Of a stretch of 64,000 nt of DNA, positions 5,501 through 44,063 are shown piece after piece. Numbering within the stretch: the first letter of the stretch is position 1; each line of letters starts with the position of its first letter. Source of the DNA: an uncultured cyanobacterium (GTDB taxonomy: Bacteria; Cyanobacteriota; Cyanobacteriia; PCC-6307; Cyanobiaceae); NCBI GenBank assembly GCA_963697335.1, contig CAVONQ010000008.1:54487-118486 (forward strand), written 5' to 3'. Position numbers and translations under genes: made by a program. The notes under the pieces were generated by a model that was not told the origin of the DNA, made no database searches, and saw only the letters and a list, made by a program, of their open reading frames with translations.

Positions 5501-7234
5501 TCAGCGCCAGACCAGGAAGGCCTCGGCCTGCAGCGGCAGGCCCGCCACGCCGCCCCCCTGGAGCTCCGCCAGGGGGCGCTGCTGGCACTGCAGCTGGGCG
5601 CTGGGATGGGCGGTGCGCTGCGCATCGGGCGTGAGCAACAGCGCCACGCTCTCGGTGTTTGGCCAGACGGCCAGCCGCCGCAGCAGGTCGGTGATGCCCT
5701 GCTCCCGCAGGCCATCGGCCCCACGGCCTGAACTGAGCAGCAGGGCCAGGTCGGGCTGGTTGAGCAGGGCCAGCAGCCGGGGGTGCTCCTCGCGCCCCAG
5801 CAGCAGCCCCTGTTCCAGGGCCCAGGCCTGCAGATGGTCCAACCGCTCCGCCCGGACGGCCGCTGGCCCACCGGACGCGTCGGTGGCCTCGCTCCAGGCC
5901 AATACCGCGGTGAGCCCCAGGGGGCAGCTCGGCCCGTCCCCCATCAGGTGCCCGAGCTTGGAGCGCTTGACGGCCAGGTAGGCCGCGTTGTGGGTGCCGG
6001 GATCCATGACCAGGGGCACCCGGTCCACCACCTCCAACCCATAGCCGCCGAGACCGGCGATCTTGCGGGGGTTGTTGGTGATCAGACGCAGTCGCTGGAT
6101 GCCCAGGTCGCTGAGAATCTGGGCACCCACGCCGTAGTTGCGCAGGTCGGCGGGGAAGCCCAGCCGCTCGTTGGCCTCCACCGTGTCCAGGCCCGTGTCC
6201 TGGAGTGAGTAGGCCCTGAGCTTGTTGATCAGGCCAATGCCCCGGCCCTCCTGGCGCAGGTACACCACCACCCCTTCGCCAGCCTCCTCCAGCATTCGCA
6301 GGGCCGTCTCCAGCTGGGGGCGGCAGTCACAGCGCAGCGACCCGAAGGCATCCCCGGTGAGGCACTCGCTGTGCACCCGCACCAGCACGGGCGCAGTGGC
6401 CTGCTCGGGATGGCCCTTGACGATGGCCACATGCTCGCTGCCATCGAGCTCATTGCGGTAGCCGATCGCCCGGAACTCCCCGAAGCTGCTGGGCAGGGCC
6501 GCCTCCGCCTGGCGGCGCACGAAGCGCTCGGTGTCGAGGCGGTAGCCAATCAGATCGGCGATGTTGATCAGGCGCAGGCCGTGGCGGCGGGCGTAGGCGG
6601 CCAGCTGGGGCAACCGGGCCATCGAGCCGTCGGGGTTCTGGATTTCGCAGATCACCCCGGCGGGGTAGAGGCCGGCCAGCCGGGCCAGATCCACGGCGGC
6701 TTCGGTGTGTCCCGCCCGCTTGAGCACCCCACCCTGGCGTGCCCGCAGCGGAAAGATGTGGCCGGGCCGGCGCAGGTCGCTGGGGCGGCTGGCGGGATGG
6801 ATGGCCACCTGGATCGTGCGGGCCCGGTCATCGGCGGAGATGCCGGTGCTGACGCCGTTCTCCGGGCCGGCATCGACGCTCACGGTGAAGGCCGTCTGGT
6901 TGTTGTCGGTGTTGCGATCCACCATCAGGGGCAGATCCAGGGCATCGAGGCGCTCGCCCTCCATGGCCAGGCAGATCAGGCCCCGCGCCTCGGTGGCCAT
7001 GAAGTTGATCTGCTCGGGGGTGGCGAACTGGGCGGCGCAGATCAGGTCGCCTTCGTTTTCACGGTTTTCGTCGTCCACCACCACGATCGAGTCACCGTTG
7101 CGGATCGCGGCGAGGGCATCGGCGATGGCATCGAAGCGGATGGCACCGGCGTCGGCCGCCTCGGAGCTGGCGACGGATGGGTTGCTCAGGGCGGTCAACG
7201 GGGGCGGTCGGACCCAAAGGCCCGGTGCAATCAT
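5501..7234 (-). CDS. ribBA: Bifunctional DHBP synthase / GTP cyclohydrolase II
   Basis: [54 protein letters not shown]. Confidence 0.95.
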
Positions 7235-7275
7235 CCTTTATAAAGCCCGCACCATCTCTCCATCGGGGCTCCGCC

Positions 7276-8340
7276 ATGGCCAGCAAGCGCGTCGCGGTGA
7301 TCGGTGCCAGCGGTTATGGCGGCCTCCAGACCCTGCGGCTGCTGCAGGGGCATCCCGGGTTTGAGGTGAGCTTCCTGGGCGGGGAGCGCAGCAGCGGCAA
7401 ACGCTGGAGCACCATCACGCCCTTCCTTCCCCTGCCCGGTGATCCGCTGGTGCAGAGCCCCGACCCCGAGGCGATCGCTGCCGCCGCCGACTTCGCCGTG
7501 CTGAGCCTGCCGAACGGCCTGGCCGCCCAGCTGGTGCCGCCGCTGCTGGAGCGCGGCGTGCGGGTGGTGGATCTCTCCGCCGACTACCGCTACCGCAGCC
7601 TGGAAACCTGGCAGACGGTGTACAGCGCCGAGGCCGCGGCGGTGCCCCGTCAGGACGCCGACCTCTGTGCCGAGGCGGTCTACGGCCTGCCCGAGTGGGA
7701 GGGTCGCCGTTTGGCCACAGCCCGATTGGTGGCGGCCCCCGGCTGCTTCCCCACGGCCTCCCTGCTGGGTCTGCTGCCCCTGCTCAAGCAGGGCCTGATC
7801 GACACCAGCGGCATCGTGATCGACGCCAAGACCGGCACCAGCGGCGGCGGCCGCGCCGCCAAGGAAAACCTGCTGCTGGCGGAGGCCGCCGAGGCGATCG
7901 CCCCCTACGGTGTGGTGGGCCACCGCCACACCAGCGAGATCGAGCAGATCGCCGGCCAGGTGGCCGGGCAACCCATCCAGCTGCAGTTCACCCCCCACCT
8001 GGTGCCGATGGTGCGCGGCCTGCTGGCCACCCTCTATGCCCGCCTGAGGGACCCCGGCCTCACCGCCGAGGACTGCCGCACGGTGCTGAGCTCCGCCTAC
8101 CCGGACAGCCCCTGCGTGCAGGTGCTGCCGGTGGGCACCTACCCCTCCACCAAGTGGGTGCGCCAGACCAACCGCGCCCTGCTCTCGGTGCAGGCCGACC
8201 CGCGCACCGGCCAGCTGATCGTGATGGGGGCGATCGACAACCTGGTGAAGGGCCAGGCGGGCCAGGGCGTGCAGTGCCTCAACCTGATGGCCGGGCTGGA
8301 GGCCACCACGGGGCTGCCCTTGCTGCCCTTCTACCCCTAG
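7276..8340 (+). CDS. argC: N-acetyl-gamma-glutamyl-phosphate reductase
   Basis: GASGYGG, DLSADYR, APGCFPT, HRHTSEI, DNLVKGQAGQ. Confidence 0.95.
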   Translation: MASKRVAVIGASGYGGLQTLRLLQGHPGFEVSFLGGERSSGKRWSTITPFLPLPGDPLVQSPDPEAIAAAADFAVLSLPNGLAAQLVPPLLERGVRVVDLSADYRYRSLETWQTVYSAEAAAVPRQDADLCAEAVYGLPEWEGRRLATARLVAAPGCFPTASLLGLLPLLKQGLIDTSGIVIDAKTGTSGGGRAAKENLLLAEAAEAIAPYGVVGHRHTSEIEQIAGQVAGQPIQLQFTPHLVPMVRGLLATLYARLRDPGLTAEDCRTVLSSAYPDSPCVQVLPVGTYPSTKWVRQTNRALLSVQADPRTGQLIVMGAIDNLVKGQAGQGVQCLNLMAGLEATTGLPLLPFYP

Positions 8341-21037: not shown

Positions 21038-21745
21038 ATGACAACGACGGATTGGCTCTGGGTGTTGCACCCCGCTCTGGCGGTGGTGCTCGTGTACCCC
21101 CTGCTCGGCCTGGTGCTGCGCCTGGCCCAGCAGACCCGGCAGCGGCGCGTTCAGAAGCTGAAGCTGCCCCCCAGCGTGGGCGGGGAGCACGTGGACTTCG
21201 GCCGGTGGTTGGCGGCGGCCGTGGTGGGCATCGAACTGCTGGCGATGGTGGTGGTGATCAGCACCAAGCAACCCTCGGCGCTGACCCCTAGCCGCAGCGC
21301 CCTGTTGCTGCTGGTGCTGGCCGGCACCGTGGCGGCGTTGGTAGCCCTCTGGCGTGCCAAGGAGGCGATCTACCGGGCCAGCTTCGCGCTGCTCTGTTGG
21401 GCCGGTGTGATCGGCCTGGGGCTGCAGCCTGAGGTGTGGCGCCTCAGCGACAACCCCCTCGATCCGGCCTTCTGGCAATCCCATTTCTGGGGCGGCATGG
21501 GGCTCACGGGGCTGATGCTGTTCTCGGTGGCGGCCCGGCCGGAGATCCTGCGGCAACTGCGCTGGCGGCGGCTGCACATCACCGCCAATGCGATCGCGGC
21601 CCTGATCTTTGTGGCCCAGGGCATCAGCGGTCCTCGCGATCTGCTGGAGATCCCGCTCAGCTGGCAGAAACCCGTCGTCTACGCCTGTGACTTCACCAAC
21701 AAGGTTTGCCCACCGCCGGCACCAGCTCCGGCGCCCCAGCCCTGA
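21038..21745 (+). CDS. DUF4079 family membrane protein
   Basis: LHPALAVVLVYPLLG, EH..FGRWL, WQSHFWGG, LH..AN, GPRDLLEIPLSWQKP. Confidence 0.8.
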   Translation: MTTTDWLWVLHPALAVVLVYPLLGLVLRLAQQTRQRRVQKLKLPPSVGGEHVDFGRWLAAAVVGIELLAMVVVISTKQPSALTPSRSALLLLVLAGTVAALVALWRAKEAIYRASFALLCWAGVIGLGLQPEVWRLSDNPLDPAFWQSHFWGGMGLTGLMLFSVAARPEILRQLRWRRLHITANAIAALIFVAQGISGPRDLLEIPLSWQKPVVYACDFTNKVCPPPAPAPAPQP

Positions 21746-21754
21746 AGTGCTCTG

Positions 21755-23788
21755 ATGCGTCTCCCTTGGGCGGTGGCCCTGCTGGCCCTGCTGGCTGGCC
21801 GTTACTGGTGGTGGCGCCTCACCAGCACCCTGGTGCTGGACGACTGGCTCAGCAGCTCGATGAGTGTGCTGGTGCTGCTCGCCGAAACCTGGCTGCTGGC
21901 CCACAGCTTCCTGCAGCTCGCCTTCAGCCTGGCGCCCGATCCCGGCATCGCCGCCCGCGCTGAACGGGCGGCCGCCCGGGTGCAGCGGCGGCTGGAGCCG
22001 GCGGGATCCGCCTCGGTGCCCCTGCCCTGGGTGGATGTGCTGATTCCCACCTGCGGGGAACCGCTGGAGCTGGTGGAGCGCTGCCTGCTGGGCTGCCGGG
22101 CGCTCACCTATCCCCGCGCCCAGGTGTGGCTACTCGACGACGCCGCGCGGCCTGAGCTGCAGCAGCTCTGCCGGCGGCTGGGCTGCCGCTACAGCTCCCG
22201 CCCGGGCCGCGAGCACGCCAAGGCCGGCAACCTCAATCACGTGCTGCCCCTGCTGCAGGGCGAGCTGATCGCCGTGTTCGATGCTGACGTGGTGCCCCTC
22301 AACACGTTCCTGCTGCGCAGCGTGGGGCTGTTCGATGAGCCCCGGGTGGCCCTGGTGCAGTCGCCCCAGACCTACATGACCGCCGACCCGGTGATCCGCA
22401 ACCTGCGGCTGGAGCGCTGGCTGATGCCGGACGAGGAGAGCTTTTACCGCTGGATCGAACCGGTGCGCCAGGGCGTCGGGGCGGTCGTGTGCGCGGGCAC
22501 GTCTTTCCTGGTGCGCCGTTCGGCCCTGCTGGCCGTGGGGGGCTTCGACACGGGCACCTCCTCGGAGGACCTGGCCACCGGGATCCGGCTGACGGCGGCG
22601 GGTGGGGAGTGCGTGTACCTGCCTGAAAAGCTGAGTGCCGGGCTGGCGCCGTTCACGGCCTCGGCCCTTGTGCGCCAGCGCTGCCGCTGGGCCAGCGGCA
22701 CCCTCCAGACCCTGCGCACCGGTGCCAGCCCACTGCGCATTGCCGGGCTGAAACCCCTGCAGCGGCTCGCCTTCCTGGAGGGCATCCTCCACTGGTTCAA
22801 TGCCCTGCCGCAGCTGCTGCTGGCCCTGATGCCGCTGATGATCGGCGTGCTGGGCGTGCTGCCCCTGCAGATCACCGGCGCAGGCCTGCTGCGCTATGCC
22901 CTGCCCTTCTTTGGCGCCCAGCTGCTGCTGGCCCGCTGGTTCAGCGACCAGGCCCGCACCGGCTTACTGCCTGAGCTCTACCGCTGGATCGTGCTGATCC
23001 CGCTGGTGGCCACGATCTGGCGCTGGGCCCTGCGGCGCCCGCTGCGCTTCAAGGTGACCCCCAAGGCCCTGGCCCCGGGCAGCAGGCAAGCCGCGGACCC
23101 CCGCCTGTGGCTGCCGCTGCTGGCGCTGCTGCTGGTGCAGCTGCTGGCCCTGCTGAACCTCTTCAGCTTGGCGCAGGATCCGAGTCTGTCGGCGCTGGCG
23201 ACGATCACCCCCGCCAGCCTGGGCCTGGGGGTGAGCTGGAGCCTGATCAATGCTCTGCTGTTGCTGCTGGCCCTGCGCTGCTGCTGGGACCGGCCGCGTC
23301 GTTCCGCCCTGCCCTGGTTTGCCGTGCGCGAACCGGCCCGCCTGGGTGGCCAGCCGGTGCTGCTGCGGGCGATCAGCGAGGAAGGGGTGGAGCTCGCCCT
23401 GGCTCCCGGCTCTCGCCTGGCTGGCCAGGTGGCGCTGCCCGTGGCTGGCCCTGCCGCGCTGCTGCAGCTCACCTGGGGCGAGGACTGCTGGCCGCTGCAG
23501 CTGGTGGCCCGCCGGGGCGAGCGGCTCGGCGCCCTCTGGGCGGGGCTCAGTCCCCACCAGCAGCGGACCCTGCACCAGCGCCTCTACCGCCAGAGCGACC
23601 TGTGGCCGCACCGGCGGGCGCCATTTGAGCCGCTGGCCCTGCTGGCGGTGCTGGGCCGACTGCTCAGCCCCATCCCCCCCGACGACTGGTTCCGGCGGAG
23701 CCTGGTGGCGATCCAGCTCACCAGCATCCCCCGGCCCCAGCGGCTGGTGCCGCCACGGGCCTATCCCAGCGCCGAGGTGGCGGTGTAA
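21755..23788 (+). CDS. Cellulose synthase-like processive GT2 with degenerate PilZ-like C-terminus
   Basis: LLDD, HAKAGNLN, FDAD, QSPQ, SEDL, QRCRW (QxxRW), multiple TM segments. Confidence 0.88.
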   Translation: MRLPWAVALLALLAGRYWWWRLTSTLVLDDWLSSSMSVLVLLAETWLLAHSFLQLAFSLAPDPGIAARAERAAARVQRRLEPAGSASVPLPWVDVLIPTCGEPLELVERCLLGCRALTYPRAQVWLLDDAARPELQQLCRRLGCRYSSRPGREHAKAGNLNHVLPLLQGELIAVFDADVVPLNTFLLRSVGLFDEPRVALVQSPQTYMTADPVIRNLRLERWLMPDEESFYRWIEPVRQGVGAVVCAGTSFLVRRSALLAVGGFDTGTSSEDLATGIRLTAAGGECVYLPEKLSAGLAPFTASALVRQRCRWASGTLQTLRTGASPLRIAGLKPLQRLAFLEGILHWFNALPQLLLALMPLMIGVLGVLPLQITGAGLLRYALPFFGAQLLLARWFSDQARTGLLPELYRWIVLIPLVATIWRWALRRPLRFKVTPKALAPGSRQAADPRLWLPLLALLLVQLLALLNLFSLAQDPSLSALATITPASLGLGVSWSLINALLLLLALRCCWDRPRRSALPWFAVREPARLGGQPVLLRAISEEGVELALAPGSRLAGQVALPVAGPAALLQLTWGEDCWPLQLVARRGERLGALWAGLSPHQQRTLHQRLYRQSDLWPHRRAPFEPLALLAVLGRLLSPIPPDDWFRRSLVAIQLTSIPRPQRLVPPRAYPSAEVAV

Positions 23789-26277
23789 CGGGGCTGCCAC
23801 CGGGCCGCATCGAGGCACTGCAATGCCTCGGCTGCCGTACTGGCCCGTTCCGCCAGACCCTCCTGCACGGCCATCAGGGCCACCGCTTCCGCCACCGCCC
23901 GGGACACGGCCTGCACCTGGGTGAGGGGAGGCATCAGCGGCGCCAGCGGATCCTGGGCGGCGGGAATGGTGGCCGCCAGGGCTTCCAGGGCCGCATCGAT
24001 CATGGGTTCGCTCACCTGGGTCGCCCCCACGGCCACGCAGGCGAAGCCCAGGCCGGGGTACAGAAAGCAGTTGTTGCACTGCCCGATCACCCGCTCCTGG
24101 CCGTCCCAGGGCACCGGGGCAAAGGGGCTGCCGGTGGCCACCAGGGCCCGGCCGCCACTCCAGGCCAGCAGATCGGCGGGGCAGGCCTCGGCCAGGTTGG
24201 TGGGGTTGGAGAGGGGCAGGATCAGGGGCCGCTGCGTGGCGGCGGCCATCGTCTCCACCACCGCCTGGTCAAAGGCGCCGGCCACGGTGGAGGTGCCGAT
24301 CAGCACCGTGGGCCGTACCTGCTGCACCACCTCCAGCAGCCCGATCTGCCCCTGGCCGTTGCGGCTGAAGTGCTCTGCTTCCTCGGCAGGCCTGGCAAGG
24401 GCTGCGGCGGTTTCCGAACCCGGCGCTGCCACGATCAGCCCGTGGCGATCGAGGCCCCAGAGCCTCTGGCGGGCCTGGTGGGCACTGAGGCCGGCGGCTT
24501 GGAGCAGCCTCAGCAGCCGTTCGGCGATGCCGCAGCCGGCTGTGCCGGCGCCGAAGATCACGATGCGCTGCTCCGCCAGGCTGGTGCCCAGCCCCCGGCA
24601 GGCCGCCAGCACCGCCGCCGCCGCTACGCCGCTGGTGCCCTGGATGTCGTCGTTGAAGCTGGGCGCCTGCTCGCGGTAGCGATCCAGCACTCGCCTCGCC
24701 TGGCCCTTGCCGAAGTCCTCCCAGTGCAGAAACACGCCCGGGAACACCTGCTGGGCCGCCGCCACGACGGCATCGAGGAAGCGGTCGTAGGCCTCGCCCC
24801 GCAGACGCGGCTGGCGGCGGCCCAGGTAGAGGGGATCGTTGAGCAGGGCGGCGTTGTCGGTGCCGACATCGAGTGCCACCGCCAGCACCCGGCCCGGGTG
24901 GAGGCCGCTGCAGAGGGTGTAGACGGCCAGCTTGCCCTGGCAGATGTGGATGCCGCCCACCCCCTGGTCGCCCAGGCCCAGGATTCCTTCAGCATCGGTG
25001 ATCAGCATCAGATCCACTGGGCCCTCGGCGGCCTGGCGCAGCAGCTCCGGCAGCCGCGTTTCCATCTCAGGTGTGAGGTAGGCGCCCAGGTCGGGTGGCT
25101 GGTGGCTGTGGCTGAAGCCCTGGATCACCCGTCCGACGGTGGGGGTGTACACCACGGGCAGGGCCGCCTCGATGTGCTCCTGCAGGAAGGCGTGGAAGAG
25201 GGTGCGGTTGCTGCGGCGCAGCCGGTCCAGGTAAGTGAAGCGCTCGAGGCTGCCCTGCAGGCCACTGAAGCCCTGCCACACCCGCTCCACCTGCTGCTCG
25301 AGGCTCTCCACCGCCGCGGGCAGCCGGGCCTCCAGCTGCAGGCTGCGCCGCTCCTCCAGGCTGAAGGCGGTGTCGCGGTTCAGCCGTGGGTCGGCCAGCA
25401 CGGCCAGTCCCTGGCGAGGCTGGAATCCCTCGGGATCAGGCCCCGCCTCCACCCGCACCCGGTAGTGCATGCGGGAGCCCACGCCGGTGCCCCGGTAGTG
25501 GCCGCTCACCGGCGCCGCCAGGTGGTGATCGGCGGCCGTCACCAGGGTGACGTGGCCATCGGCCACGGCCAGGCCGAGGCTGGGGTCGTAGGCACGCCAG
25601 CCGCCGCCGGGGAGCCACACCTCCGCCCAGGCATGCAGCTCGTGCTCGCTCACCTCTGGCGGATGATGCATGGAGTAGCCGCTCACGAAGCGGGCCGCCA
25701 GGCCGAGGCTGCGGCAGGCCGCCACGTAGAGCATGGCCGTGTCGCGGCAGGCGCCGCGGCGCTGGGCCAGGGTGTCGGCGGGCGCCATCGGCTCGCCGTC
25801 GAAGCGACCGATGTGCTCGAAGCTGTGGTGGATGCGGTCGGCCAGCAACAGCAGCAGGTCGGTGCTGCGCTGGCCGGCCTCCGCCGCCAGCTCCGCAGCC
25901 CAGGCCGCCACGCTCGGCTCGGCCTGGCCCAGGAAGGGGGCCAGGGCCGCCGCAGTGGCGGGGGGGTAGCGGAGCGGCAGGGTCTGGGCGCTGGGATCGG
26001 TGAGGATCCAGTCAAAGGGGTTGCGGCGCAGCGTTTCCACCACGGCGGTGGTGTGGATCCAGAGCTCCTGCCGCAGGCCCGTGAACCAGATCTCAGTGGT
26101 GTCGGCGCCGCCGGGCTCCTCCACCGGCGTACTGCCAGCCGCCTCCCGCACCGTGAGGGTGTGACTCAGCAGTCGCTGCGTGGCGCTCTGCCGGGGCGTG
26201 AGCCGCAGGGTGTGCGGCTCCAGGAACACGGGTTGGTCGTAGTGGTAGTGGAGCGTGTGGTGGATCCGGAAGAACAT
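23761..26277 (-). CDS. Fusion of a bacterial transglutaminase-like protein and an NAD-dependent malic enzyme
   Basis: N-half: IHHTLHYHY, LRLTPR, GACRD, RFVSGY, HAWAEV, YDPS. C-half: YTPTVG, ILGLGDQG, WEDFG, FNDDIQGT, GAGTAG, LSNPT, QCNN. Single open frame. Confidence 0.88.
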   Translation of the reverse strand: MFFRIHHTLHYHYDQPVFLEPHTLRLTPRQSATQRLLSHTLTVREAAGSTPVEEPGGADTTEIWFTGLRQELWIHTTAVVETLRRNPFDWILTDPSAQTLPLRYPPATAAALAPFLGQAEPSVAAWAAELAAEAGQRSTDLLLLLADRIHHSFEHIGRFDGEPMAPADTLAQRRGACRDTAMLYVAACRSLGLAARFVSGYSMHHPPEVSEHELHAWAEVWLPGGGWRAYDPSLGLAVADGHVTLVTAADHHLAAPVSGHYRGTGVGSRMHYRVRVEAGPDPEGFQPRQGLAVLADPRLNRDTAFSLEERRSLQLEARLPAAVESLEQQVERVWQGFSGLQGSLERFTYLDRLRRSNRTLFHAFLQEHIEAALPVVYTPTVGRVIQGFSHSHQPPDLGAYLTPEMETRLPELLRQAAEGPVDLMLITDAEGILGLGDQGVGGIHICQGKLAVYTLCSGLHPGRVLAVALDVGTDNAALLNDPLYLGRRQPRLRGEAYDRFLDAVVAAAQQVFPGVFLHWEDFGKGQARRVLDRYREQAPSFNDDIQGTSGVAAAAVLAACRGLGTSLAEQRIVIFGAGTAGCGIAERLLRLLQAAGLSAHQARQRLWGLDRHGLIVAAPGSETAAALARPAEEAEHFSRNGQGQIGLLEVVQQVRPTVLIGTSTVAGAFDQAVVETMAAATQRPLILPLSNPTNLAEACPADLLAWSGGRALVATGSPFAPVPWDGQERVIGQCNNCFLYPGLGFACVAVGATQVSEPMIDAALEALAATIPAAQDPLAPLMPPLTQVQAVSRAVAEAVALMAVQEGLAERASTAAEALQCLDAARWQPRYTATSALG

Positions 26278-26533
26278 GGGGGAGGCAGCGTCAGGCGCCA
26301 GGGCCGTTACCGAAGCGGAGCGCCGACCCCACCTTCGTCTGGTGGGGGAACAGGGTGCTGCTGGACCCGAAGAGAGCCCCGCCGAGCAAGTCCGACTGGA
26401 CGTCCTCAACCGGGTTACGCAGCGTCACGTTCGGGCTGTGGCGTCCCAGTCAAGCTATGCCAGCGTGAGGATGGCCGGGGCCGCGCAAGCGGCACTCCTG
26501 CGCCATCGTCCATGCCGGCGCAGTGGTGAAGGG

Positions 26534-26956
26534 ATGCTCGCTTTTCTGCTGAACGTTCTCTGGTTTGTGCTGGGGGGCTTCGTGATGGGTCTGGGCTGGT
26601 GGCTGGCCGGCCTGGTGGCGGCCCTCACCGTGGTGGGCATTCCCTGGGCCCGGGCCTGCTTCGTGATCGGCAATTTCTCCTTCTGGCCCTTCGGAAAGGA
26701 GGCGATCAGCCGCCAGGAACTCACGGGCCACGCCGACTTCGGCACCGGCCCCCTGGGGCTGGTGGGCAACGTGATCTGGTTCCTCCTGGCGGGCTGGTGG
26801 CTGGCCATTGGCCACCTCAGCTCGGCTCTGGCCTGCTTCGTGACCATCGTGGGCATCCCCTTCGGGATTCAGCACGTGAAGCTCGCCCTGATCGCCCTGG
26901 CCCCGATCGGCCTCACGGTGGTGCCGAGTGGCACGAGGCCAAGCTTGGAGGGGTGA
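26534..26956 (+). CDS. yccF: YccF domain inner-membrane protein
   Basis: Two repeats of N(V/I)(L/I)WF..GG/GW...T(V/I)VGIP. Confidence 0.88.
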   Translation: MLAFLLNVLWFVLGGFVMGLGWWLAGLVAALTVVGIPWARACFVIGNFSFWPFGKEAISRQELTGHADFGTGPLGLVGNVIWFLLAGWWLAIGHLSSALACFVTIVGIPFGIQHVKLALIALAPIGLTVVPSGTRPSLEG

Positions 26957-27342: not shown

Positions 27343-27921
27343 CTATGGAAGGTCGTGGGTCTCCATCGGACACCTTTCACCCTCCAACCCACCAAATCCA
27401 CACCGCAGCACCGCCAGGGCGTCATCCGGCAGCCCCAGAAAGCCATCGAGCCAGCGGTCGCCGCTGGGGGGCACCCGCGCCACGCCGACCAGACAGCCCT
27501 GGCCGCTGGCATCCAGGGGGGTGCCCTCGGCCCGATGGCGCTGGCCTGCCACCGATCCCGTGGTGAGGTCCGTGCTCACCAGCAGCGGCGGTGGTTGGTA
27601 AAGCCCGCCCCAGCTGCAGTGGAAGCGGGCCTCGAACCGCAGGGTCACGGCTCCGCTGGCCGGCACGAGCTGGCCGGCGAGGGTGAGGGGTTCGATGGTG
27701 ATCTGCAACCCCGGCGGCAGGGGCAGCCCCAGCACCCGCGTCGTGCGCCAGTTCAGGGGGGGGATGCTGAGCTCGGCGGGGTCGAAGGCGATCTCCAAGG
27801 TGTCGTCAACGGGGCTGCAGGTTGCCCTGCCGCTGCCGCCCCGGGCGTCGTAGCGAAAGCGGGGATAGCGGCCGATCGCCAATCCGCAGCCCGCCTGGGT
27901 GTGCAGCTCCAGGCTGGTCAT
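27343..27921 (-). CDS. Conserved cyanobacterial hypothetical protein
   Basis: L.IGRYPRFRYDARGG, IPPLNWRTTR.LGLPLPPGL, LDGFLGLPDDALAVLRC. Confidence 0.7.
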   Translation of the reverse strand: MTSLELHTQAGCGLAIGRYPRFRYDARGGSGRATCSPVDDTLEIAFDPAELSIPPLNWRTTRVLGLPLPPGLQITIEPLTLAGQLVPASGAVTLRFEARFHCSWGGLYQPPPLLVSTDLTTGSVAGQRHRAEGTPLDASGQGCLVGVARVPPSGDRWLDGFLGLPDDALAVLRCGFGGLEGERCPMETHDLP

Positions 27922-27953: not shown

Positions 27954-28610
27954 TCAGGCGTGGCGGAGGCCTTCGAGGCTGCCGCGGGCGTGAAGCTCGG
28001 CGAGGGCGTCATAGCCACCGATGAAGGTACCGTCGATGAACACCTGGGGCACGCTGCCAGGCTGGCTGGGCTCGATCACCCGGTGGGCAATGCCCAGGGT
28101 GCGCAGCATGCGCAGGGCCCGGGCTGAAAACGGGCAGCCGGGCAGCACGGCCACCTCCACCCTGGCAGCCGTGGGGGCCTGGGCCAGGGGCACCATCAGG
28201 GGTTCAGCGGATCGCTGGACGGCGCCCTGCAAGGTCGCTTGAGTGGCCCCTTGCTCCACGACCTGAGCAGCGGCGCCAGGCTCCGGATCAAACAGCCCCA
28301 CCAGGAGGTCGGCTCCCTTGTACACCAGCGTGCCGGGCTCCAGGTGGCCGCCCCACACCTGGCAGGCGTTGTCGGAGAAGCTCAGGTGCAGGTGCACCCC
28401 CTGGGCGGCCACCGTGCCCTGCAGGGTGATGATCTCCAGCTCGCCCGCCAGCACGGTGGGACTGGGCTCACCGGGGCACTGGAACGATGCCTGGGTGAGG
28501 TTCCCCACCACGCTCAACACGAAGCCGTGGCCCCCCTCCTGGGCGGCCAGCTGCTCCAGGGACTGGCGCACGTCGCTGCCGGGTTCGAGGTGCAGGGCCA
28601 GAAACCGCAT
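27954..28610 (-). CDS. PPC/DUF296 domain protein fused to a glutaredoxin-like domain
   Basis: LEPGSDV, SVVGNL, EIITLQG, HLHLS, GGHL; C-terminal GCPFS..VPQVFIDG..IGGYD. Confidence 0.85.
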   Translation of the reverse strand: MRFLALHLEPGSDVRQSLEQLAAQEGGHGFVLSVVGNLTQASFQCPGEPSPTVLAGELEIITLQGTVAAQGVHLHLSFSDNACQVWGGHLEPGTLVYKGADLLVGLFDPEPGAAAQVVEQGATQATLQGAVQRSAEPLMVPLAQAPTAARVEVAVLPGCPFSARALRMLRTLGIAHRVIEPSQPGSVPQVFIDGTFIGGYDALAELHARGSLEGLRHA

Positions 28611-28698
28611 GGACAGACGGGCGAGAACGGAGGACACCAAGGCCCGAAATTAAGCCCTCGCCTGGCCCCCGGGTCGTCCAGCAGACCGCCGCCCGGCC

Positions 28699-29676
28699 AT
28701 GGGCGGCTCCACAATGCGAGCCCGCCAGGGTCCTGTGATCGGCTTTCATTCGCCTCGCTCCTACACCCTGCTGTCCGTGGGGGCGTCCCTGGCCACGATG
28801 GCGATCAAGATCGTCGCCTGGCGCTTCACCGGCTCGGTGGGCCTGTTCTCCGACGCGCTCGAATCCCTGGTGAACCTGGCGGCGGCGCTGGGAGGCTTCT
28901 GGGCCCTGACCCTGGCGGCCAGGCCTGCCGATCGGAATCACAACTATGGCCACTTCAAGGCCGAATACTTCTCCAGCGGTCTCGAGAGCGCCCTGATCGT
29001 GCTGGCGGCGCTGCTGATCCTGCAGAGCGCCGTCGGCCGGCTGCTCAACCCCCAGCCCTTGGAGCAGGTGGGTCTCGGCCTGATGCTCACGCTGCTGGCC
29101 ACGGCCCTGAACGGGCTCGTGGCGGTGCTGCTGCTGGGGGCGTCGCGTCGCTTTCATTCGATCACCCTGCGGGCCGATGGCCAGCACCTGCTCACCGACG
29201 TGTGGACCTCCCTGGGGGTGGTGCTGTCCCTGGTGCTGGTGCCGCTCACCGGCCTCACCGTGCTGGATCCCCTGGTGGCGATCGCCGTGGCAGCCAACAT
29301 CCTGTTCACGGGCTGGCAGCTGCTGCACGAGACGGCCTCAGGCTTGCTGGACCGCTCCCTCGACGAGCCCGATCAGCAGCGGCTCAGCAAGCTGCTCGCG
29401 GCTCGCAGCGGCGATGAAGTGGCCTTCCATGCCGTGCGCACCCGGGTGGCGGGCTCCCGTCGCTTCGTGACCATGCACGTGCTGGTGCCGGGCCACTGGA
29501 GTGTGCAGCGGGGCCACGACTTCTGCTCCGCCCTGGAGCGGGACATCGCCGCCGTCCTGCCCCGCAGCCACGTGTTGACCCATCTGGAGCCGATCGAGGA
29601 CCCCAGCGCCTGGAACGACGACGGCTTCCAGTGGGATGGCGATCCGGCGGCAGCCCGGGGCTCGGATTCTCGATAG
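28699..29676 (+). CDS. Cation diffusion facilitator transporter
   Basis: GSVGLFSDALESLVN, PAD..H.YGH.KAEY, ADGQHLLTD, THLEP. Confidence 0.92.
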   Translation: MGGSTMRARQGPVIGFHSPRSYTLLSVGASLATMAIKIVAWRFTGSVGLFSDALESLVNLAAALGGFWALTLAARPADRNHNYGHFKAEYFSSGLESALIVLAALLILQSAVGRLLNPQPLEQVGLGLMLTLLATALNGLVAVLLLGASRRFHSITLRADGQHLLTDVWTSLGVVLSLVLVPLTGLTVLDPLVAIAVAANILFTGWQLLHETASGLLDRSLDEPDQQRLSKLLAARSGDEVAFHAVRTRVAGSRRFVTMHVLVPGHWSVQRGHDFCSALERDIAAVLPRSHVLTHLEPIEDPSAWNDDGFQWDGDPAAARGSDSR

Positions 29677-33346: not shown

Positions 33347-35785
33347 TCAGCCAAGAGAGTCGGGCTCCAGCCGCTTGTGGCCCCCCAAGGCTTCGAGCCA
33401 CACCAGCACGGCCAGCCAGTGCAGACCCACCGCCGACCAGAGCGAGCCGGTGAGGCTGTAGATGAGCACGCAGGCGCCACCCAGCAGGGTGCACTGCAAC
33501 AGGAAGCGGGGGTCGTCAGAGACGGCCCGCCCCTGGGGGTACCAGAGGCGCCCCGCCAGGGGGTGGTAGGCCACGAACAGTCCCACGCTCAGGGCCCCCC
33601 AGGCCGCCATGGCGGCGGCGGGCACGCCTTCGAGGGGATGGGGCAGCAGCAGGCCCCGGAAGATCAGCTCCTCCACCAGCGCCGGCAGCACCAGCAGAGC
33701 AGCGGCGCGGCGCAGCAGGCCAGGCCAGCCTCCTCCGCCCGGCCGTCCCCAGCGCCAGGGTCCGTGCAGGAAGCCGCTGCCGAATCCCAGCCCCAGGGCC
33801 AGGGCGCCGTAGAGCAGCAGCACCAGCACCGAAAAGCCCAGGGGAGCCCCCAGCAAGGGCGGCACCAGCCCATCCATCAGCCGCGGCACCAGGGTGCCCA
33901 CCACCGGCAGATGGCCCAGCAGGGTGGTGGGGGCCACCGGCTCCAGCGCGGGGTTGTTGCCGGGGATCTGGTTGGTGCGCAGGATCCAGAGCGGCAGCCC
34001 CTGGCGCAGGAAGACGGTGGCGAGGCCGTCGTGGGCGCGGCGCGGCAGCATCGAGCGCAGGCTGAGCAGCACCGCCACCGGACCCTGGCTGGTCATGAAG
34101 GCGGGCTGGGCGGCGCCGCCCGCGGAGTCCTGGCGCAAACCCGTGCCGGCCATGGCGGTGACGCGGGCGTTGTGGCGCCAGTCGGGGCGCACCATGCCGA
34201 AGGGCGTGAGCAGCTCCTCCAGGCCCCGCCCCAGGCGACTCAGGCGGCTGTCCGGATCGGGCGCGACACCGGCCAGCCGTTGTTCGGCGCGCAGTTGATC
34301 CAGGGCGATCCAGAGGGCCTGGCTGGAATCCTGCACACAGGAGGTGGCGGGCGTCACCAGGGCCACACCCTGGCCATCGCCGGTGCGGTAGCGGGCACTG
34401 ATGATTTCGGCCTGCAGGGCCAGGGCATCCAGCAGGGGGCCGTCCAGGGGCACCAGCACATCGGAGAAGGGGCGGGTGCCCAGCCAGCCCCGCTGCAGGT
34501 TGCCGGCGTAGGCGCTCCAGTCCTGACTGCCCGCAACGATGCCGTTTGGGTTGTTGGCATAGATCTGGTGGTAACGCAGATCGAGCTGGGGCTCGCCGCT
34601 GAATGGATCCACCACCACTTCGGCCTCGCCGAGGGCCAGATGGCCGGTGGTGGTCCAGGCCGGGGAGGGTTCGCCATCGCGGCCGCCGATGCCGCCGAAC
34701 AGATGGATCAACAGGGCCCGCTGGCCGGGGCTCGCCAAGGGCAGCTCGTCGGGCTCCGAGCTGAGGGCGGTGCTGGTCAGGGTGCCCCGGCGCAGGGCCG
34801 CCTCCGCCCAGTTCTCGCGGTTGATCTGCCTGAGGCCTGAGCTGGTGCCCCGCACGACCCGCGTCGGGCTGAGGCCCAGCAGGGCCCGCGGTTGCAGCGC
34901 CTGCACGGTGAACACCCCATCGGGGCCGGGGGCGCCGCTGATCAGCCACCCCTTGGGGTTCAGCTCCGAGGCCACCAGTCCGCTCGGATCCAGCATCACC
35001 CGCCCGAACCGATCCGGCGGCAACCGGGGAATCCTGATCGATTCCTCCACTCCGGAGAAGTCACGGCCGGAGCGGTCGTAGTGCCGCACCCGCCAGCGGT
35101 GCGGATCATCGCTGGCGCTGTCGGGCCCCAGCACGGTGACCAGCCCCAGCCAGCGCCCGCTGGTCTGCACCGGCGGCTTGCTGATCCGCAGCGTGTCGCC
35201 CTCAAGGCTCACCCCCTCCAGCCGCACACTGACGCTGTCCTGGGGGCGAGCCCCGGCCAGGGACTGCAGCGGCCCCACGGCCAGCCGGCCATCCAGGCGG
35301 GTGGGCACCACATTGGCGGCGGCGGCGGCCTCTCGGGCGGCCTGGCCCAGGCGCACATCGGTGCTCACCGCCTCCACCATGGCCTGCAGTCGGGGCTGGT
35401 CGGCCCAGGTGAGACCCAGCCGCTGGCCGATCAGGGCCTCCTGGCCAGGCGGCGCCTGCTCCAGATCCAGCCACACCCAGTCGCCGCGGCGCAGGGCCTT
35501 CTCCTCCACCGAGGGCAGGATCAGCCGGCCCATCCACTCGGCATGGGGCCGGTAGAGCTGCTGATCGGGCTTCAGGCCCAGGGGGTAGTAGGAGCTGTGG
35601 CTGAAGGGGGAGCGGTTGGCCAGGGCCTCGCTGCTCTCCGGCAGCGGGCGCTCCGGAGTGCCCTGGCGCAGCGGCACCGCCTGCAGCCCCGGGCGGAGCG
35701 GGCCCAGGGGCAGCAGGGCCAGCACCAGGGCCAGCAGCCCCCCCAGCAGGGTTCGGAGAGCACGCAGACGGGCAGAGCTGCTCAT
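33347..35785 (-). CDS. Large CPBP/CAAX (Abi) intramembrane protease with a long N-terminal domain
   Basis: C-terminal EELIFRG, FVAYHP, LHW; signal-like N-terminus. Coupled to sbcC. Confidence 0.8.
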   Translation of the reverse strand: MSSSARLRALRTLLGGLLALVLALLPLGPLRPGLQAVPLRQGTPERPLPESSEALANRSPFSHSSYYPLGLKPDQQLYRPHAEWMGRLILPSVEEKALRRGDWVWLDLEQAPPGQEALIGQRLGLTWADQPRLQAMVEAVSTDVRLGQAAREAAAAANVVPTRLDGRLAVGPLQSLAGARPQDSVSVRLEGVSLEGDTLRISKPPVQTSGRWLGLVTVLGPDSASDDPHRWRVRHYDRSGRDFSGVEESIRIPRLPPDRFGRVMLDPSGLVASELNPKGWLISGAPGPDGVFTVQALQPRALLGLSPTRVVRGTSSGLRQINRENWAEAALRRGTLTSTALSSEPDELPLASPGQRALLIHLFGGIGGRDGEPSPAWTTTGHLALGEAEVVVDPFSGEPQLDLRYHQIYANNPNGIVAGSQDWSAYAGNLQRGWLGTRPFSDVLVPLDGPLLDALALQAEIISARYRTGDGQGVALVTPATSCVQDSSQALWIALDQLRAEQRLAGVAPDPDSRLSRLGRGLEELLTPFGMVRPDWRHNARVTAMAGTGLRQDSAGGAAQPAFMTSQGPVAVLLSLRSMLPRRAHDGLATVFLRQGLPLWILRTNQIPGNNPALEPVAPTTLLGHLPVVGTLVPRLMDGLVPPLLGAPLGFSVLVLLLYGALALGLGFGSGFLHGPWRWGRPGGGGWPGLLRRAAALLVLPALVEELIFRGLLLPHPLEGVPAAAMAAWGALSVGLFVAYHPLAGRLWYPQGRAVSDDPRFLLQCTLLGGACVLIYSLTGSLWSAVGLHWLAVLVWLEALGGHKRLEPDSLG

Positions 35786-41007: not shown

Positions 41008-41472
41008 TCAGGGCAGCGCCACCAGCACGCCGCCAAGGGCGATCAGGGCCACCCCCAGCCAGCTGCGCCCGCTCAGTTGCTCGCCGAGCACCAGCACGCC
41101 CAGCAACGCCACCAGCACCACGCTGAGCTTGTCGATCGGGGCCACCCGCGCCAGCGGCCCCAGTTGCAGGGCGCGGAAGTAGCAGAGCCAGGAGATGGCG
41201 GTGGCCAGGCCCGAGAGGCCCAGGGCCACCAGGCTTGCCCGCGGCAGGTCGGCCAGGGACTGGCCCTGCAGCTGGCCGCTGGCCAGCAGGCCCACCGCCA
41301 GGGCGACCACCACCACCAGGGTGCGCAGGAAGGTGGCCAGGTTGGCGTCGATGCCGGCCAGACCAAGCTTGGCCAGCAGGGAGGTGAGGGCGGCGCTCAA
41401 GGCGGCCAGCACTGCCCAGAGTTGCCAGCTGCCCAGCAGGGTCGCCAGCAGTCCGCCACCAGCCGGGGTCAT
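41008..41472 (-). CDS. EamA/DMT family small transporter
   Basis: [39 protein letters not shown]. Confidence 0.88.
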
Positions 41473-44063
41473 GGCACCAGGTTGACCAGCTTGCCGGGTA
41501 CCACGATCACCCGGCTGGGGGGTTTGCCCTCCAGCCACTTGGCGGCGATGTCGCTGGCCAGGGCGATCCGCTCCAGGGTGGCCCTGTCCGCATCGGCCGG
41601 CACCTCCAGGTTGCCGCGCACCTTGCCCTTCACCTGGATCACCAAGGGAATCGTGTCGCGCACCAGGGCCGTGGCATCCACCTTCGGCCAGGCCTGGACG
41701 TGGATGCTGGCGCCGCCCTCGAGCCGGCTCCAGAGCTCCTCGGCCAGGTGGGGAGCAAAGGGCGCCAGCAGCAGCAGCAGGCTGCCCAGGGCCTCCTGGG
41801 CCACGGCGATGCCGCTGGCTTCCAGATGTTCGGCCATGGCGTTGCTGAGCTTCATCAGCTCGGCGATGGCGGTGTTGAACTGAAAGTCACCGTCGAGGTC
41901 GTCGCTCACCGCCGCGATGGCCGTGTGCACGGCGCGGCGCAGCTCCCGCTCGGCCGGGCTGGGCGTGACCTCGGCGCTGGCGCCGCCCAGCCGCAGGCCC
42001 CTGGCCTGGGCCGTTTCCACCAGCCGCCAGAGGCGCTGCAGAAAGCGGTACTGGCCCTCCACGTCGGCATCGTCCCACTCGAGATCCTTCTCGGGGGGCG
42101 CTTTGAACAGGATGAACATGCGGGCCGTGTCGGCGCCGTAGCGCTCGATCACCCGGGCAGGATCGACGCCGTTGTGCTTCGACTTCGACATCTTTTCGTA
42201 GCAGGTGTCGAGCACCTCGCCGCTGATCGGATCGCGGGGGTCGGTGGGGTCGGCCACATCGGCCGGGGCGATGGTGGTGCCGGTGGTGGGATTCCTGTAG
42301 GTGATGCCCTGCACCATCCCCTGGGTGAGCAGCCGCTGGAAGGGCTCATCGAAGCCCAGCAGGCCGCGATCCCGAAGCACCTTGGTGAAGAAGCGGGCGT
42401 AGAGCAGGTGCAGGATGGCGTGCTCGATGCCGCCCACGTACTGGTCCACCGGCAGCCAGCGGTCCACCGCCTCACGGCTGAAGGGCAGGGAGGTGTTGTG
42501 GGGATCGCTGTAGCGCAGGTAGTACCAGCTGGAGCACATGAACGTGTCCATGGTGTCGGTCTCGCGGCGGGCCGGCTGGCCGCAACAGGGACAGTCCACC
42601 TGCCACCAGCTCTCCAGCTGGGCCAGGGGTGAGCCGCCCTTGCGGCTGATCGCCACATCCCGGGGCAGCTCCACCGGCAACTGCTCGGCCGGCACCGGCA
42701 CCACGCCGCAGCTCTCGCAGTGGATCATCGGGATCGGGCAGCCCCAGTAGCGCTGGCGGGAAATCAGCCAGTCGCGCAGGCGAAACTGCACCTTGCCCTC
42801 ACCCCAGCCCTGCTGCTCGGCGGCGGCGGTGATCGCGGCCTTGGCCTCGGTGCTGGCGAGCCCGGTGAAGGGGCCCGAGTGAATCAGCATGCCTGGCTCG
42901 GTCCAGGCGCCGCCCTCATAGGCATGCTCGTCGCTGCCCTCCGGGATGATCACCTGCAGCACCGGCAGCTCGTACTGCCGTGCGAACACGAAGTCGCGCT
43001 GGTCGTGGGCGGGCACTCCCATCACGGCCCCGGTGCCGTAATCGGCCAGCACGTAGTCGGCGATCCACAGGGGGATCAGGGCGCCACTGGCGGGATTGCG
43101 CACCCGGGCGCCGATGGGGATGCCGCGCTTGGGCCGGTCGTCCGCGGTGCGCTCCAGGTCGCTCTGGCGGCTCACCAGATCGCAGAAGGCCGTCACCGCC
43201 AGCTCCTGCTCGGGGCTGGTGAGGGAGGCCACCAGGGGATGCTCCGGCGCCAGCACCACATAGCTGACGCCGTAGAGGGTGTCCGGCCGCGTGGTGAACA
43301 CGCGGATGCGCTGGTCGGTGTCGCGGCCCTCGGCATCCACCACGGCAAAGCTGAGTTCAGCGCCCGTACTGCGGCCGATCCAGTTGGCCTGCATCGTGCG
43401 CACCCGCTCCGGCCAGCCCGTGAGCTTGGGCAGGTCGTCGAGCAGCTGGTCGGCGTAGGCGGTGATCTTCAGGAACCATTGGCGCAGGCGACGCTTCTCC
43501 ACCAGGGCGCCGGAGCGCCAGGAGCGGCCCTCGCCATCCACCTGTTCGTTGGCGAGCACCGTCTGGTCCACCGGATCCCAGTTCACGGTGGCCTCCTTCT
43601 GATAGGCCAGGCCGGCGGCGTGGAACTGCAGGAACAGCCACTGGGTCCAGCGGTAGTAGTCGGCGTGGCAGGTCGCCACTTCCCGGTCCCAGTCGATCGA
43701 CAGCCCCAGCCGCTGCAGCTGGGTTCGCATGGCGGCGATGTTCCGGTCGGTCCAGGCGCCGGGGTCCACGCCCCGCTCGATTGCCGCGTTCTCCGCCGGA
43801 AGCCCGAAGGCGTCCCAGCCCATCGGATGGAGCACCGCCCGGCCCCGCATGCGCTGCACGCGAGCGATGACATCGGTGATCACGTAGTTGCGCACATGGC
43901 CCATGTGCAGGTTCCCCGAGGGGTAGGGGAACATCGACAGGGCCACGAAGGGCTCAGCCTCGGAGGCTGGGGCCGTTGGCGTGCGGTAGGCCTGCTGCTC
44001 GTTCCAGAACGCCTGCCAGCGCTCTTCGATGACCTGCGGTTGGTAGCGGTTGCTCTCGCTCAC
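41469..44063 (-). CDS. leuS: Leucyl-tRNA synthetase
   Basis: [39 protein letters not shown]. Confidence 0.97.

Follow-up and report, generated by a model that had tools for sequence, protein, structure and literature searches.

The familiar fusion of a malic enzyme is MaeB, in which the enzyme is joined to a phosphotransacetylase (PTA). Proteins with a Bact_transglu_N domain are very common in bacteria and have, to our knowledge, no established function. A passage of PMC3597751 describes transglutaminase-like proteins associated with CP_ATPgrasp and Alpha-E genes, and, according to a passage of PMC7522525, an NAD-malic enzyme is one of 31 genes that are specific to the picocyanobacteria of sub-cluster 5.2. 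Here, we describe a gene in which these two families are joined. It lies in a stretch of 64,000 nucleotides (hereafter the window) from an uncultured cyanobacterium of the family Cyanobiaceae (assembly GCA_963697335.1, contig CAVONQ010000008.1, positions 54,487 to 118,486 of the forward strand) and encodes, in one reading frame, a transglutaminase-like half (TG; Bact_transglu_N and Transglut_core) and a malic enzyme half (ME). The genome of the window is called G000, and the other G numbers designate the genomes compared with it. The architecture is genuine, rare, and restricted to one clade, and it is a new domain combination made from known parts. No description of it, or of close relatives, was found in a literature search that included few subscription journals.

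The fused gene and its two halves

An earlier note on the window had reported a single open reading frame of 838 codons with an intact Cys-His-Asp triad. Both points hold upon translation, and the triad motifs are located as GACRD (Cys177), HAW (His215), and YDP (Asp231). The domain search that the note had proposed, for Bact_transglu_N, Transglut_core, malic, and Malic_M, returned all four with Pfam. The features of the gene are the following:

23761..26277, minus strand: fused gene, 838 codons plus stop, with an ATG start at 26275-26277
26035..26271, minus strand: Bact_transglu_N, residues 3-81 (Pfam E 1.8e-16, 61.0 bits for a cut-off of 27)
25582..25851, minus strand: Transglut_core, residues 143-232 (Pfam E 2.2e-19, 70.2 bits for a cut-off of 23)
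25747-25749, 25633-25635, and 25585-25587, minus strand: codons of the catalytic triad, respectively Cys177, His215, and Asp231, within Transglut_core
25402..25452, minus strand: junction, residues 276-292, where the last TG strand ends and GPDPEGFQPRQG follows
23776..25416, minus strand: ME half, residues 288-834
24673-25212, minus strand: malic N-terminal domain (PF00390), residues 356-535 (Pfam E 4.9e-56)
23869-24645, minus strand: Malic_M NAD-binding domain (PF03949), residues 545-803 (Pfam E 3.6e-83)

The listing of open reading frames gives a longer, TTG-initiated frame around the gene (23761..26409, minus strand, 882 amino acids), and translation from the ATG at 26277 gives the 838 amino acids ending at a stop. 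This ATG is, as the comparison of orthologues indicates, the true start, because all five fused orthologues begin there with MFF(R/E)IHH and the open stretch upstream is unconserved, being merely 3-4 codons long in two of the five.

We searched 41 genomes with the whole protein and found full-length orthologues free of stops in G012 (96% identity), G002 (85%), G019 (83%), and G009 (73%). For three of these four species, the genome is assembled in one or two contigs. The earlier note had named two separate genes in all relatives as an outcome that would speak against the fusion, and four other species turn out to be fused. The junction was also checked over 24900-25900 in assembled contigs of public runs, rather than in raw reads. 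A single contig of run X1 spans this whole interval with 4 substitutions and no gaps; this run is possibly the sample behind the window assembly and is not independent support. In X5, a 733-base contig covers 25091-25823 and differs by 20 substitutions but no gap. The contigs of X7 run through 25319-25564 free of gaps, and those of X2 cover the junction in part. No insertion or deletion was found at the junction in the contigs of X1, X5, and X7, and the segment that had been singled out for a check, near 25400-25460, shows neither indel nor stop. Because four other species carry a stop-free fusion and the junction is free of indels in contigs of independent runs, the fusion is a genuine inherited gene and not an artefact of assembly.

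By every sequence test that we ran, the ME half reads as a near-complete malic enzyme of the large SfcA/MaeA type. It scores 675 bits against the NCBIfam profile PRK13529 (oxaloacetate-decarboxylating malate dehydrogenase), for a cut-off of 326, and the match extends over profile positions 16-561 of 564. This agrees with the previous description of a TG module joined through EAGPDPEGFQPRQG to a complete malic enzyme. Its best solved relative is an NAD-dependent malic enzyme, PDB 6AGS (E 8.4e-137, chain positions 18-558 of 573), with whose motifs the YTPTVG, GKL, EDF, NDDIQGT, and GAG(T/S)AGCG of the ME half align. We take these to be the conserved catalytic and metal-binding motifs and the glycine motif of dinucleotide binding, the latter reading GAGTAGCG in this protein. 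Standalone ME orthologues within the genus are 62-68% identical to the ME half. The partner that the earlier note had named as the familiar one of a fused malic enzyme is lacking here, since the MaeB-type profile (PRK12861) gives only 38 bits for a cut-off of 1178 and the Pfam scan shows no PTA domain. The malolactic enzyme profile (NF041582) was discarded as well (527 bits for a cut-off of 850). Since the fusion is the single Malic_M match in the genome of the window, which is 98.8% complete, the fused protein is the sole malic enzyme found in it.

The TG half is predicted to adopt a papain-like transglutaminase fold. Modelled alone, the module reaches a pLDDT of 92.5 and a pTM of 0.91, and the Bact_transglu_N domain is beta-rich in the structure models. 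The best structural match is PDB 3ISR (Foldseek E 3.9e-19, TM 0.73, 282 aligned columns), and TgpA, animal transglutaminases (2/3), PNGase, and LapG follow at lower rank. Cys177, His215, and Asp231 are invariant in all 31 aligned sequences (the five fused proteins and 26 split, operon-type, and other cyanobacterial homologues), as are the motifs around them. Domains, triad, and fold together assign the TG half to the bacterial transglutaminase-like putative cysteine proteases.

Two Bact_transglu_N genes are present in the genome of the window, one in the fusion and the other in an operon:

L063, G000:C18 5315-8642, minus strand: CP_ATPgrasp (490 amino acids), Alpha-E (327), and TG-like (297) genes, assigned by Pfam, the TG gene being the last

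Between the fused copy and the operon copy the identity is 33-34%, and the former is an orphan paralogue of the latter. The orphan subfamily is marked by the block SGYSMHHPPEVSEHELHAWAEV, distinctive and conserved, which surrounds the catalytic His. The association of TG-like proteins with ATP-grasp and Alpha-E genes, named in the earlier note, is thus real in this genome, and its three-gene size pattern recurs in 4 of 9 other cyanobacterial loci, with Pfam confirmation for one of them (L057). Neither an ATP-grasp nor an Alpha-E gene was found near TG at the fused locus or next to the standalone orthologues examined. The latter have no conserved operon partner, their neighbours being ZIP, nitroreductase/SdiA-regulated, and SDR genes. 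We also considered the long proteins of about 1100 amino acids of the DUF2126 type, which are 32-39% identical to the 300 N-terminal residues of the fused protein, and set them aside upon finding no PF09899 in its Pfam scan. Standalone TG orthologues form at least 120 clusters among shorter proteins (61-68% identity), and cyanobacteria elsewhere in the class have TG homologues that are 39-45% identical, alongside a short-type ME only.

The two halves meet very closely. The linker EAGPDPEGFQPRQG spans residues 277-290 (25408-25449 of the window), and the alignment derives GPDPEGFQPRQG, after the last TG strand, from the N-terminal head of standalone MEs: the PDPEGFQPRQG of the junction aligns with TTPDPVRFTQLRG in the standalone ME of G013. 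Standalone TG proteins of the genus have 309-317 amino acids and standalone MEs 571-595, and therefore a TG tail and an ME head have been lost in the fusion. The earlier note had seen neither a stop nor an ATG at the junction. There is indeed no stop, and the linker itself is free of ATG, but an in-frame ATG stands at codon 270 (25468-25470), seven codons upstream of the linker, and there are several in-frame GTGs. Met270 belongs to the TG half. Of the fused species, only G000 and G012 retain it, and the remaining three have Leu, Leu, and Phe at this place. A full-length AlphaFold2 model (mean pLDDT 88.8, pTM 0.72) passes directly from the last TG strand (268-279) to the ME helices 282-285 and 289-295, and its TG part varies between 48 and 98 in the mean pLDDT of 10-residue blocks. 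A complex prediction of the ME half (288-838) with the TG half (1-280), using alignments, scored 0.00; it had no controls and is given no weight either way.

Distribution and origin of the fusion

To the earlier note the architecture was unusual, and the survey agrees with this. We surveyed 32 species genomes of the genus (E <= 1e-60) and found the fused form in five, both genes as separate matches in 18, a TG orthologue only in one (G006, 78% complete), ME only in two (G003, 76% complete, and G024), and neither gene in six (completeness 77-99%). In all split genomes of the genus that were compared, TG and ME lie on different contigs or far apart. We then used a sample of 151 genomes of the family, four of the genus of the window and 147 of other genera. 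The fused form was not found in the 147, and fused frames occur only in the four genus members. The remaining TG orthologue matches of this sample are in open frames that do not exceed 457 amino acids, and the other ME matches are ME alone. TG orthologues are present in 36 genomes and ME in 43. The two occur together in 29 genomes, TG alone in 7, and ME alone in 14, and 101 have neither, one of these 101 holding a TG fragment of 70% identity. A few candidates were rejected. The ME matches of four genomes of another genus that seemed to contain one TGA result from an alignment overrunning the natural stop. The 846-amino-acid open frame at ME in G186 has a short upstream open stretch, and that of 867 amino acids in G077 is, judged by eye, a high-GC open frame preceding a normal ME N-terminus.

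The protein collections gave a similar picture. Searching 5.8 billion proteins with the 300 N-terminal residues, 5 of the best 120 hits carry all four Pfam domains and the other 115 are of the DUF2126 type. The fused clusters are named after Cyanobium sp. NS01, NIES-981, PCC 7001, and Aphanothece, with one unnamed, and public databases label the fused proteins as malate dehydrogenase or oxidoreductase only. Among the best 150 matches in 1.84 billion representatives, P0006 alone matches both halves, one is a standalone TG, and 148 are ME only. We scanned with Pfam 14 long ME proteins taken from these best 150 and found a transglutaminase domain in none of them. An extra domain is present in only two, the 941-amino-acid thioredoxin-ME protein P0282 and the 726-amino-acid ME-GGDEF protein P0256. 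Ten others have N-terminal extensions of 150-640 residues lacking a Pfam domain, and P0275 and P0386 are extended at the C-terminus, likewise with no Pfam domain in the extension.

Phylogenetic trees were built from 25 TG rows and 24 ME rows, none being dropped. In each tree, a single group unites the fused rows, with a support of 100/99 in the TG tree and of 85/82 in the ME tree, where the group is present in 87% of the bootstrap trees. The topology within the group is the same in both: (G009,((G012,G000),(G002,G019))). All matching genomes outside the genus have separate genes, and the split state looks ancestral. Because both trees give one fused clade and every other genus is split, the simplest reading is that the genes fused only once, in an ancestor shared by a small clade of Cyanobium type.

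The surroundings of the gene include the following features:

21038-21745, plus strand: DUF4079 gene, ancestral neighbour of TG
21755-23788, plus strand: GT2 or cellulose-synthase-like gene, ancestral neighbour of TG
27343-27921, minus strand: unnamed gene of 192 amino acids, ancestral neighbour of ME
27954-28640, minus strand: PCC-domain/glutaredoxin gene, ancestral neighbour of ME
28699-29676, plus strand: cation-efflux (CDF) gene, ancestral neighbour of ME

All five fused loci have the DUF4079 and GT2 genes pointing towards the fused gene, and the genes of the 192-amino-acid and PCC proteins on its other side, on the same strand as the fusion; the CDF gene comes next, in the opposite direction, where the stretch reached that far (G000, G012, and G009). 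TG precedes DUF4079 and GT2, all three in the same direction, in the split genomes G013, G023, G044, G015, and G043. ME stands beside the PCC and 192-amino-acid genes in the split genomes G008, G016, G045, G041, G007, and G010, and beside the CDF gene in G043, G023, and G044. Since the neighbours that TG and ME have in split genomes meet at the fused locus, the latter is a mosaic of the two ancestral neighbourhoods. The series of inversions or transpositions behind it is not uniquely recoverable, and we claim the mosaic nature alone.

A few observations on these neighbours and on the rest of the window are worth recording. The GT2 and fused genes are convergent, and their 3' ends overlap by 28 bases. 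The PCC/glutaredoxin protein (228 amino acids) has a PCC domain (PF03479, E 3e-20) and a partial glutaredoxin domain at its C-terminus (E 1.3e-7), and its gene stands beside ME in many genomes of the genus. A gene of the YccF inner-membrane family (26255-26956, plus strand) lies between the fused gene and that of the 192-amino-acid protein in only two of the five fused genomes, G000 and G012. An 812-amino-acid protein at 33347-35785 (minus strand) matches Pfam only towards its C-terminus, where residues 693-792 form an Rce1-like CAAX protease domain.

We estimated the ratio of nonsynonymous to synonymous substitution rates (dN/dS, Nei-Gojobori) in the 10 pairs of fused genes. It is 0.04-0.30 for TG and 0.14-0.35 for ME, and both halves are thus under purifying selection. 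The linker, with 0.09-1.47, is the fastest-evolving part of the gene.

Relation between the two halves

We consider it somewhat probable that this real fusion arose once and that its two enzymes keep their ancestral activities, the arrangement being tolerated or mildly useful and bringing no new coupled mechanism. A local rearrangement would have put the orphan TG gene, with DUF4079 and GT2, next to the ME gene and its PCC and CDF neighbours. The stop of TG, with around 25-30 codons of its tail, and the start of ME, with around 20-40 codons of its head, would then have been lost, so that the last TG beta-strand runs almost straight into the first ME helix. The 550 C-terminal residues, the only malic enzyme of the cell, would convert malate and NAD(P)+ to pyruvate, CO2, and NAD(P)H, and the 280 N-terminal residues would remain an enzyme with a Cys-His-Asp triad, one of the TG-like putative cysteine proteases of bacteria. 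The main yield of the fusion would be that the halves are co-expressed at equal dose and that the ME oligomer has TG domains tethered to it. We infer the path of rearrangement, the retention of catalytic activity, and the lack of mechanistic coupling between the halves.

Several observations that this account plays down hint at a functional link between the halves. In the closest pair, dN/dS is 0.04 for TG and 0.14 for ME, a strong constraint on TG. The model has almost no linker and holds a bulky domain rigidly at the N-terminus of ME, yet the arrangement has been kept down to 73% identity. Of the genomes of the genus, 23 carry both genes, 6 carry neither, and 3 carry one alone; among these 3, the completeness of two is only 76-78%, and in the third a decayed TG stands beside ME. 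Two split genomes have TG and ME close together: in G024 they are neighbours in divergent orientation, and in G165 a distance of 14 kb separates them. In a LeuRS tree, the genomes with neither gene fall at scattered places among the carriers, which, if the tree is right, suggests more than one joint loss of TG and ME. This argument is weak because the marker is compromised. The tree is that of a single gene, is poorly resolved, and has 26 of 30 rows, four short rows having been dropped and two genomes lacking the locus. It groups G021 with G024 and G017 (94/86) and G022 with G046 (100/99), and it puts G008 inside the fused clade. The LeuRS of G008 (L073) and G016 (L097) are 95-96% identical to that of the window in protein and 84-86% in DNA, whereas their ME and TG are just 65-69% identical. 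We rejected LeuRS as a species marker on account of this pattern, which shows signs of transfer; it could stem from recombination or transfer that took place long ago beside the ME gene. The LeuRS gene of the window lies at 41469-44063 on the minus strand, and in the genomes of group B this gene stands directly upstream of ME.

These observations lead to the first alternative, a coupling of the Rosetta-stone kind, which we regard as possible but doubtful. The orphan TG-like enzyme would act on or with ME (it could deamidate, cross-link, or proteolytically process it, or remove a peptide tag) or serve as a regulatory module, and the fusion would fix an interaction that pre-existed between the separate proteins of related picocyanobacteria. 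Apart from the points above, among them the very tight join and the strong purifying selection on TG after the fusion, the enrichment of joint presence in the family sample and the conserved triad speak for it. However, 21 genomes of the family sample carry one gene only (14 ME, 7 TG), and the two genes are unlinked in most split genomes. Co-occurrence mostly follows phylogeny, since the freshwater/brackish group has both genes and its relatives with small genomes have neither, and relatives are not independent observations. The TG copy beside ME in G024 is a pseudogene, while ME is intact. This pseudogene (L017, G024:C83, 4996-5650, minus strand) has an in-frame TAG and internal deletions, one of them just past the catalytic Cys; the intact ME (6485-8125, plus strand) is divergent from it, at around 800 bases.

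A more specific proposal is that ME itself is the target of the orphan TG proteins, a widespread group in picocyanobacteria of fresh and brackish water. Through a thiol-dependent reaction (deamidation, cross-linking, tag removal, or processing) they would control the flux from malate to pyruvate, the regulator having become covalently attached to its target in one clade. We hold this to be rather unlikely. The coupling of peptide or amide chemistry, or of autoproteolysis, to C4/pyruvate flux put forward in the earlier note finds no direct support here. The genes are separable in evolution and separate in 18 species of the genus. Functional coupling of the halves is, in any of these forms, unproven.

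It is less likely still that the TG half is an enzyme no longer and has become a structural appendage of ME, involved in oligomerisation, localisation, or ligand sensing. Additions to ME do exist in other lineages (thioredoxin in P0282, GGDEF in P0256), and the confidence of the TG part is lower when it is modelled within the full-length protein. Against such a role, the three triad residues and their motifs are invariant in the five fused proteins and the 26 other homologues, the dN/dS of TG is equal to or below that of ME, and the domain alone is modelled with confidence (pLDDT 92.5) in the fold of 3ISR. Finally, an artefact or a dying gene, that is, an indel joining two genes or a recent accident heading for decay, is hardly credible: the rarity of the architecture could alone hint at it and no support for it was found, while five species genomes share the identical in-frame junction, contigs of independent runs differ by substitutions with no gaps, and the fused clade spans 73-96% identity with a dN/dS well below 1 in both halves.

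Significance and comparison with known systems

The fusion to a well-understood enzyme of central carbon metabolism suggests the hypothesis that ME may be a partner or a substrate of the TG-like family. Because the fused protein is the only malic enzyme found in this genome, any effect of the TG domain would bear directly on carbon metabolism. If the halves prove independent, the locus would be a clean case, and a datable one, of two genes fused through local rearrangement. We see it as a lead on the function of an uncharacterised family of enzymes; a new mechanism is not indicated at present.

Among described malic enzymes, the fused protein resembles the SfcA/MaeA type (PRK13529, 6AGS) in its motifs and in its near-full coverage of the profile. 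It differs from the standalone orthologues of this type by its 287-residue N-terminal TG-like module and by the absence of the N-terminal head of 20-40 residues. MaeB (PRK12861) is likewise a multi-domain malic enzyme, but its partner is a C-terminal PTA-like domain instead of an N-terminal TG-like one, and its core is of the short type whereas that of the fused protein is of the large SfcA type.

On the transglutaminase side, 3ISR, a putative cysteine protease of Cytophaga hutchinsonii from structural genomics, shares its fold with the whole TG module (sequence match E 1.1e-11). It is only 23% identical to it, stands alone, and has a title that names no tested function. Rv2569c of Mycobacterium tuberculosis may belong to the same family; a paper of 2024 reportedly describes it as a serine protease acting on E-cadherin, and we base no conclusion on it. 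The periplasmic domain of TgpA of Pseudomonas aeruginosa (PDB 6G49) has the transglutaminase core in common with the TG half (sequence E 1.6e-4, structure E 7.6e-8), but the TM is just 0.39, and the Pfam domains of the fused protein are those of TG and ME only. The TG protein of the CP_ATPgrasp/Alpha-E/TG triad, a predicted system of peptide synthesis or modification, shares with the TG half its two-domain build and its Cys-His-Asp triad, whereas the TG half belongs to the orphan subfamily, which is devoid of such neighbours.

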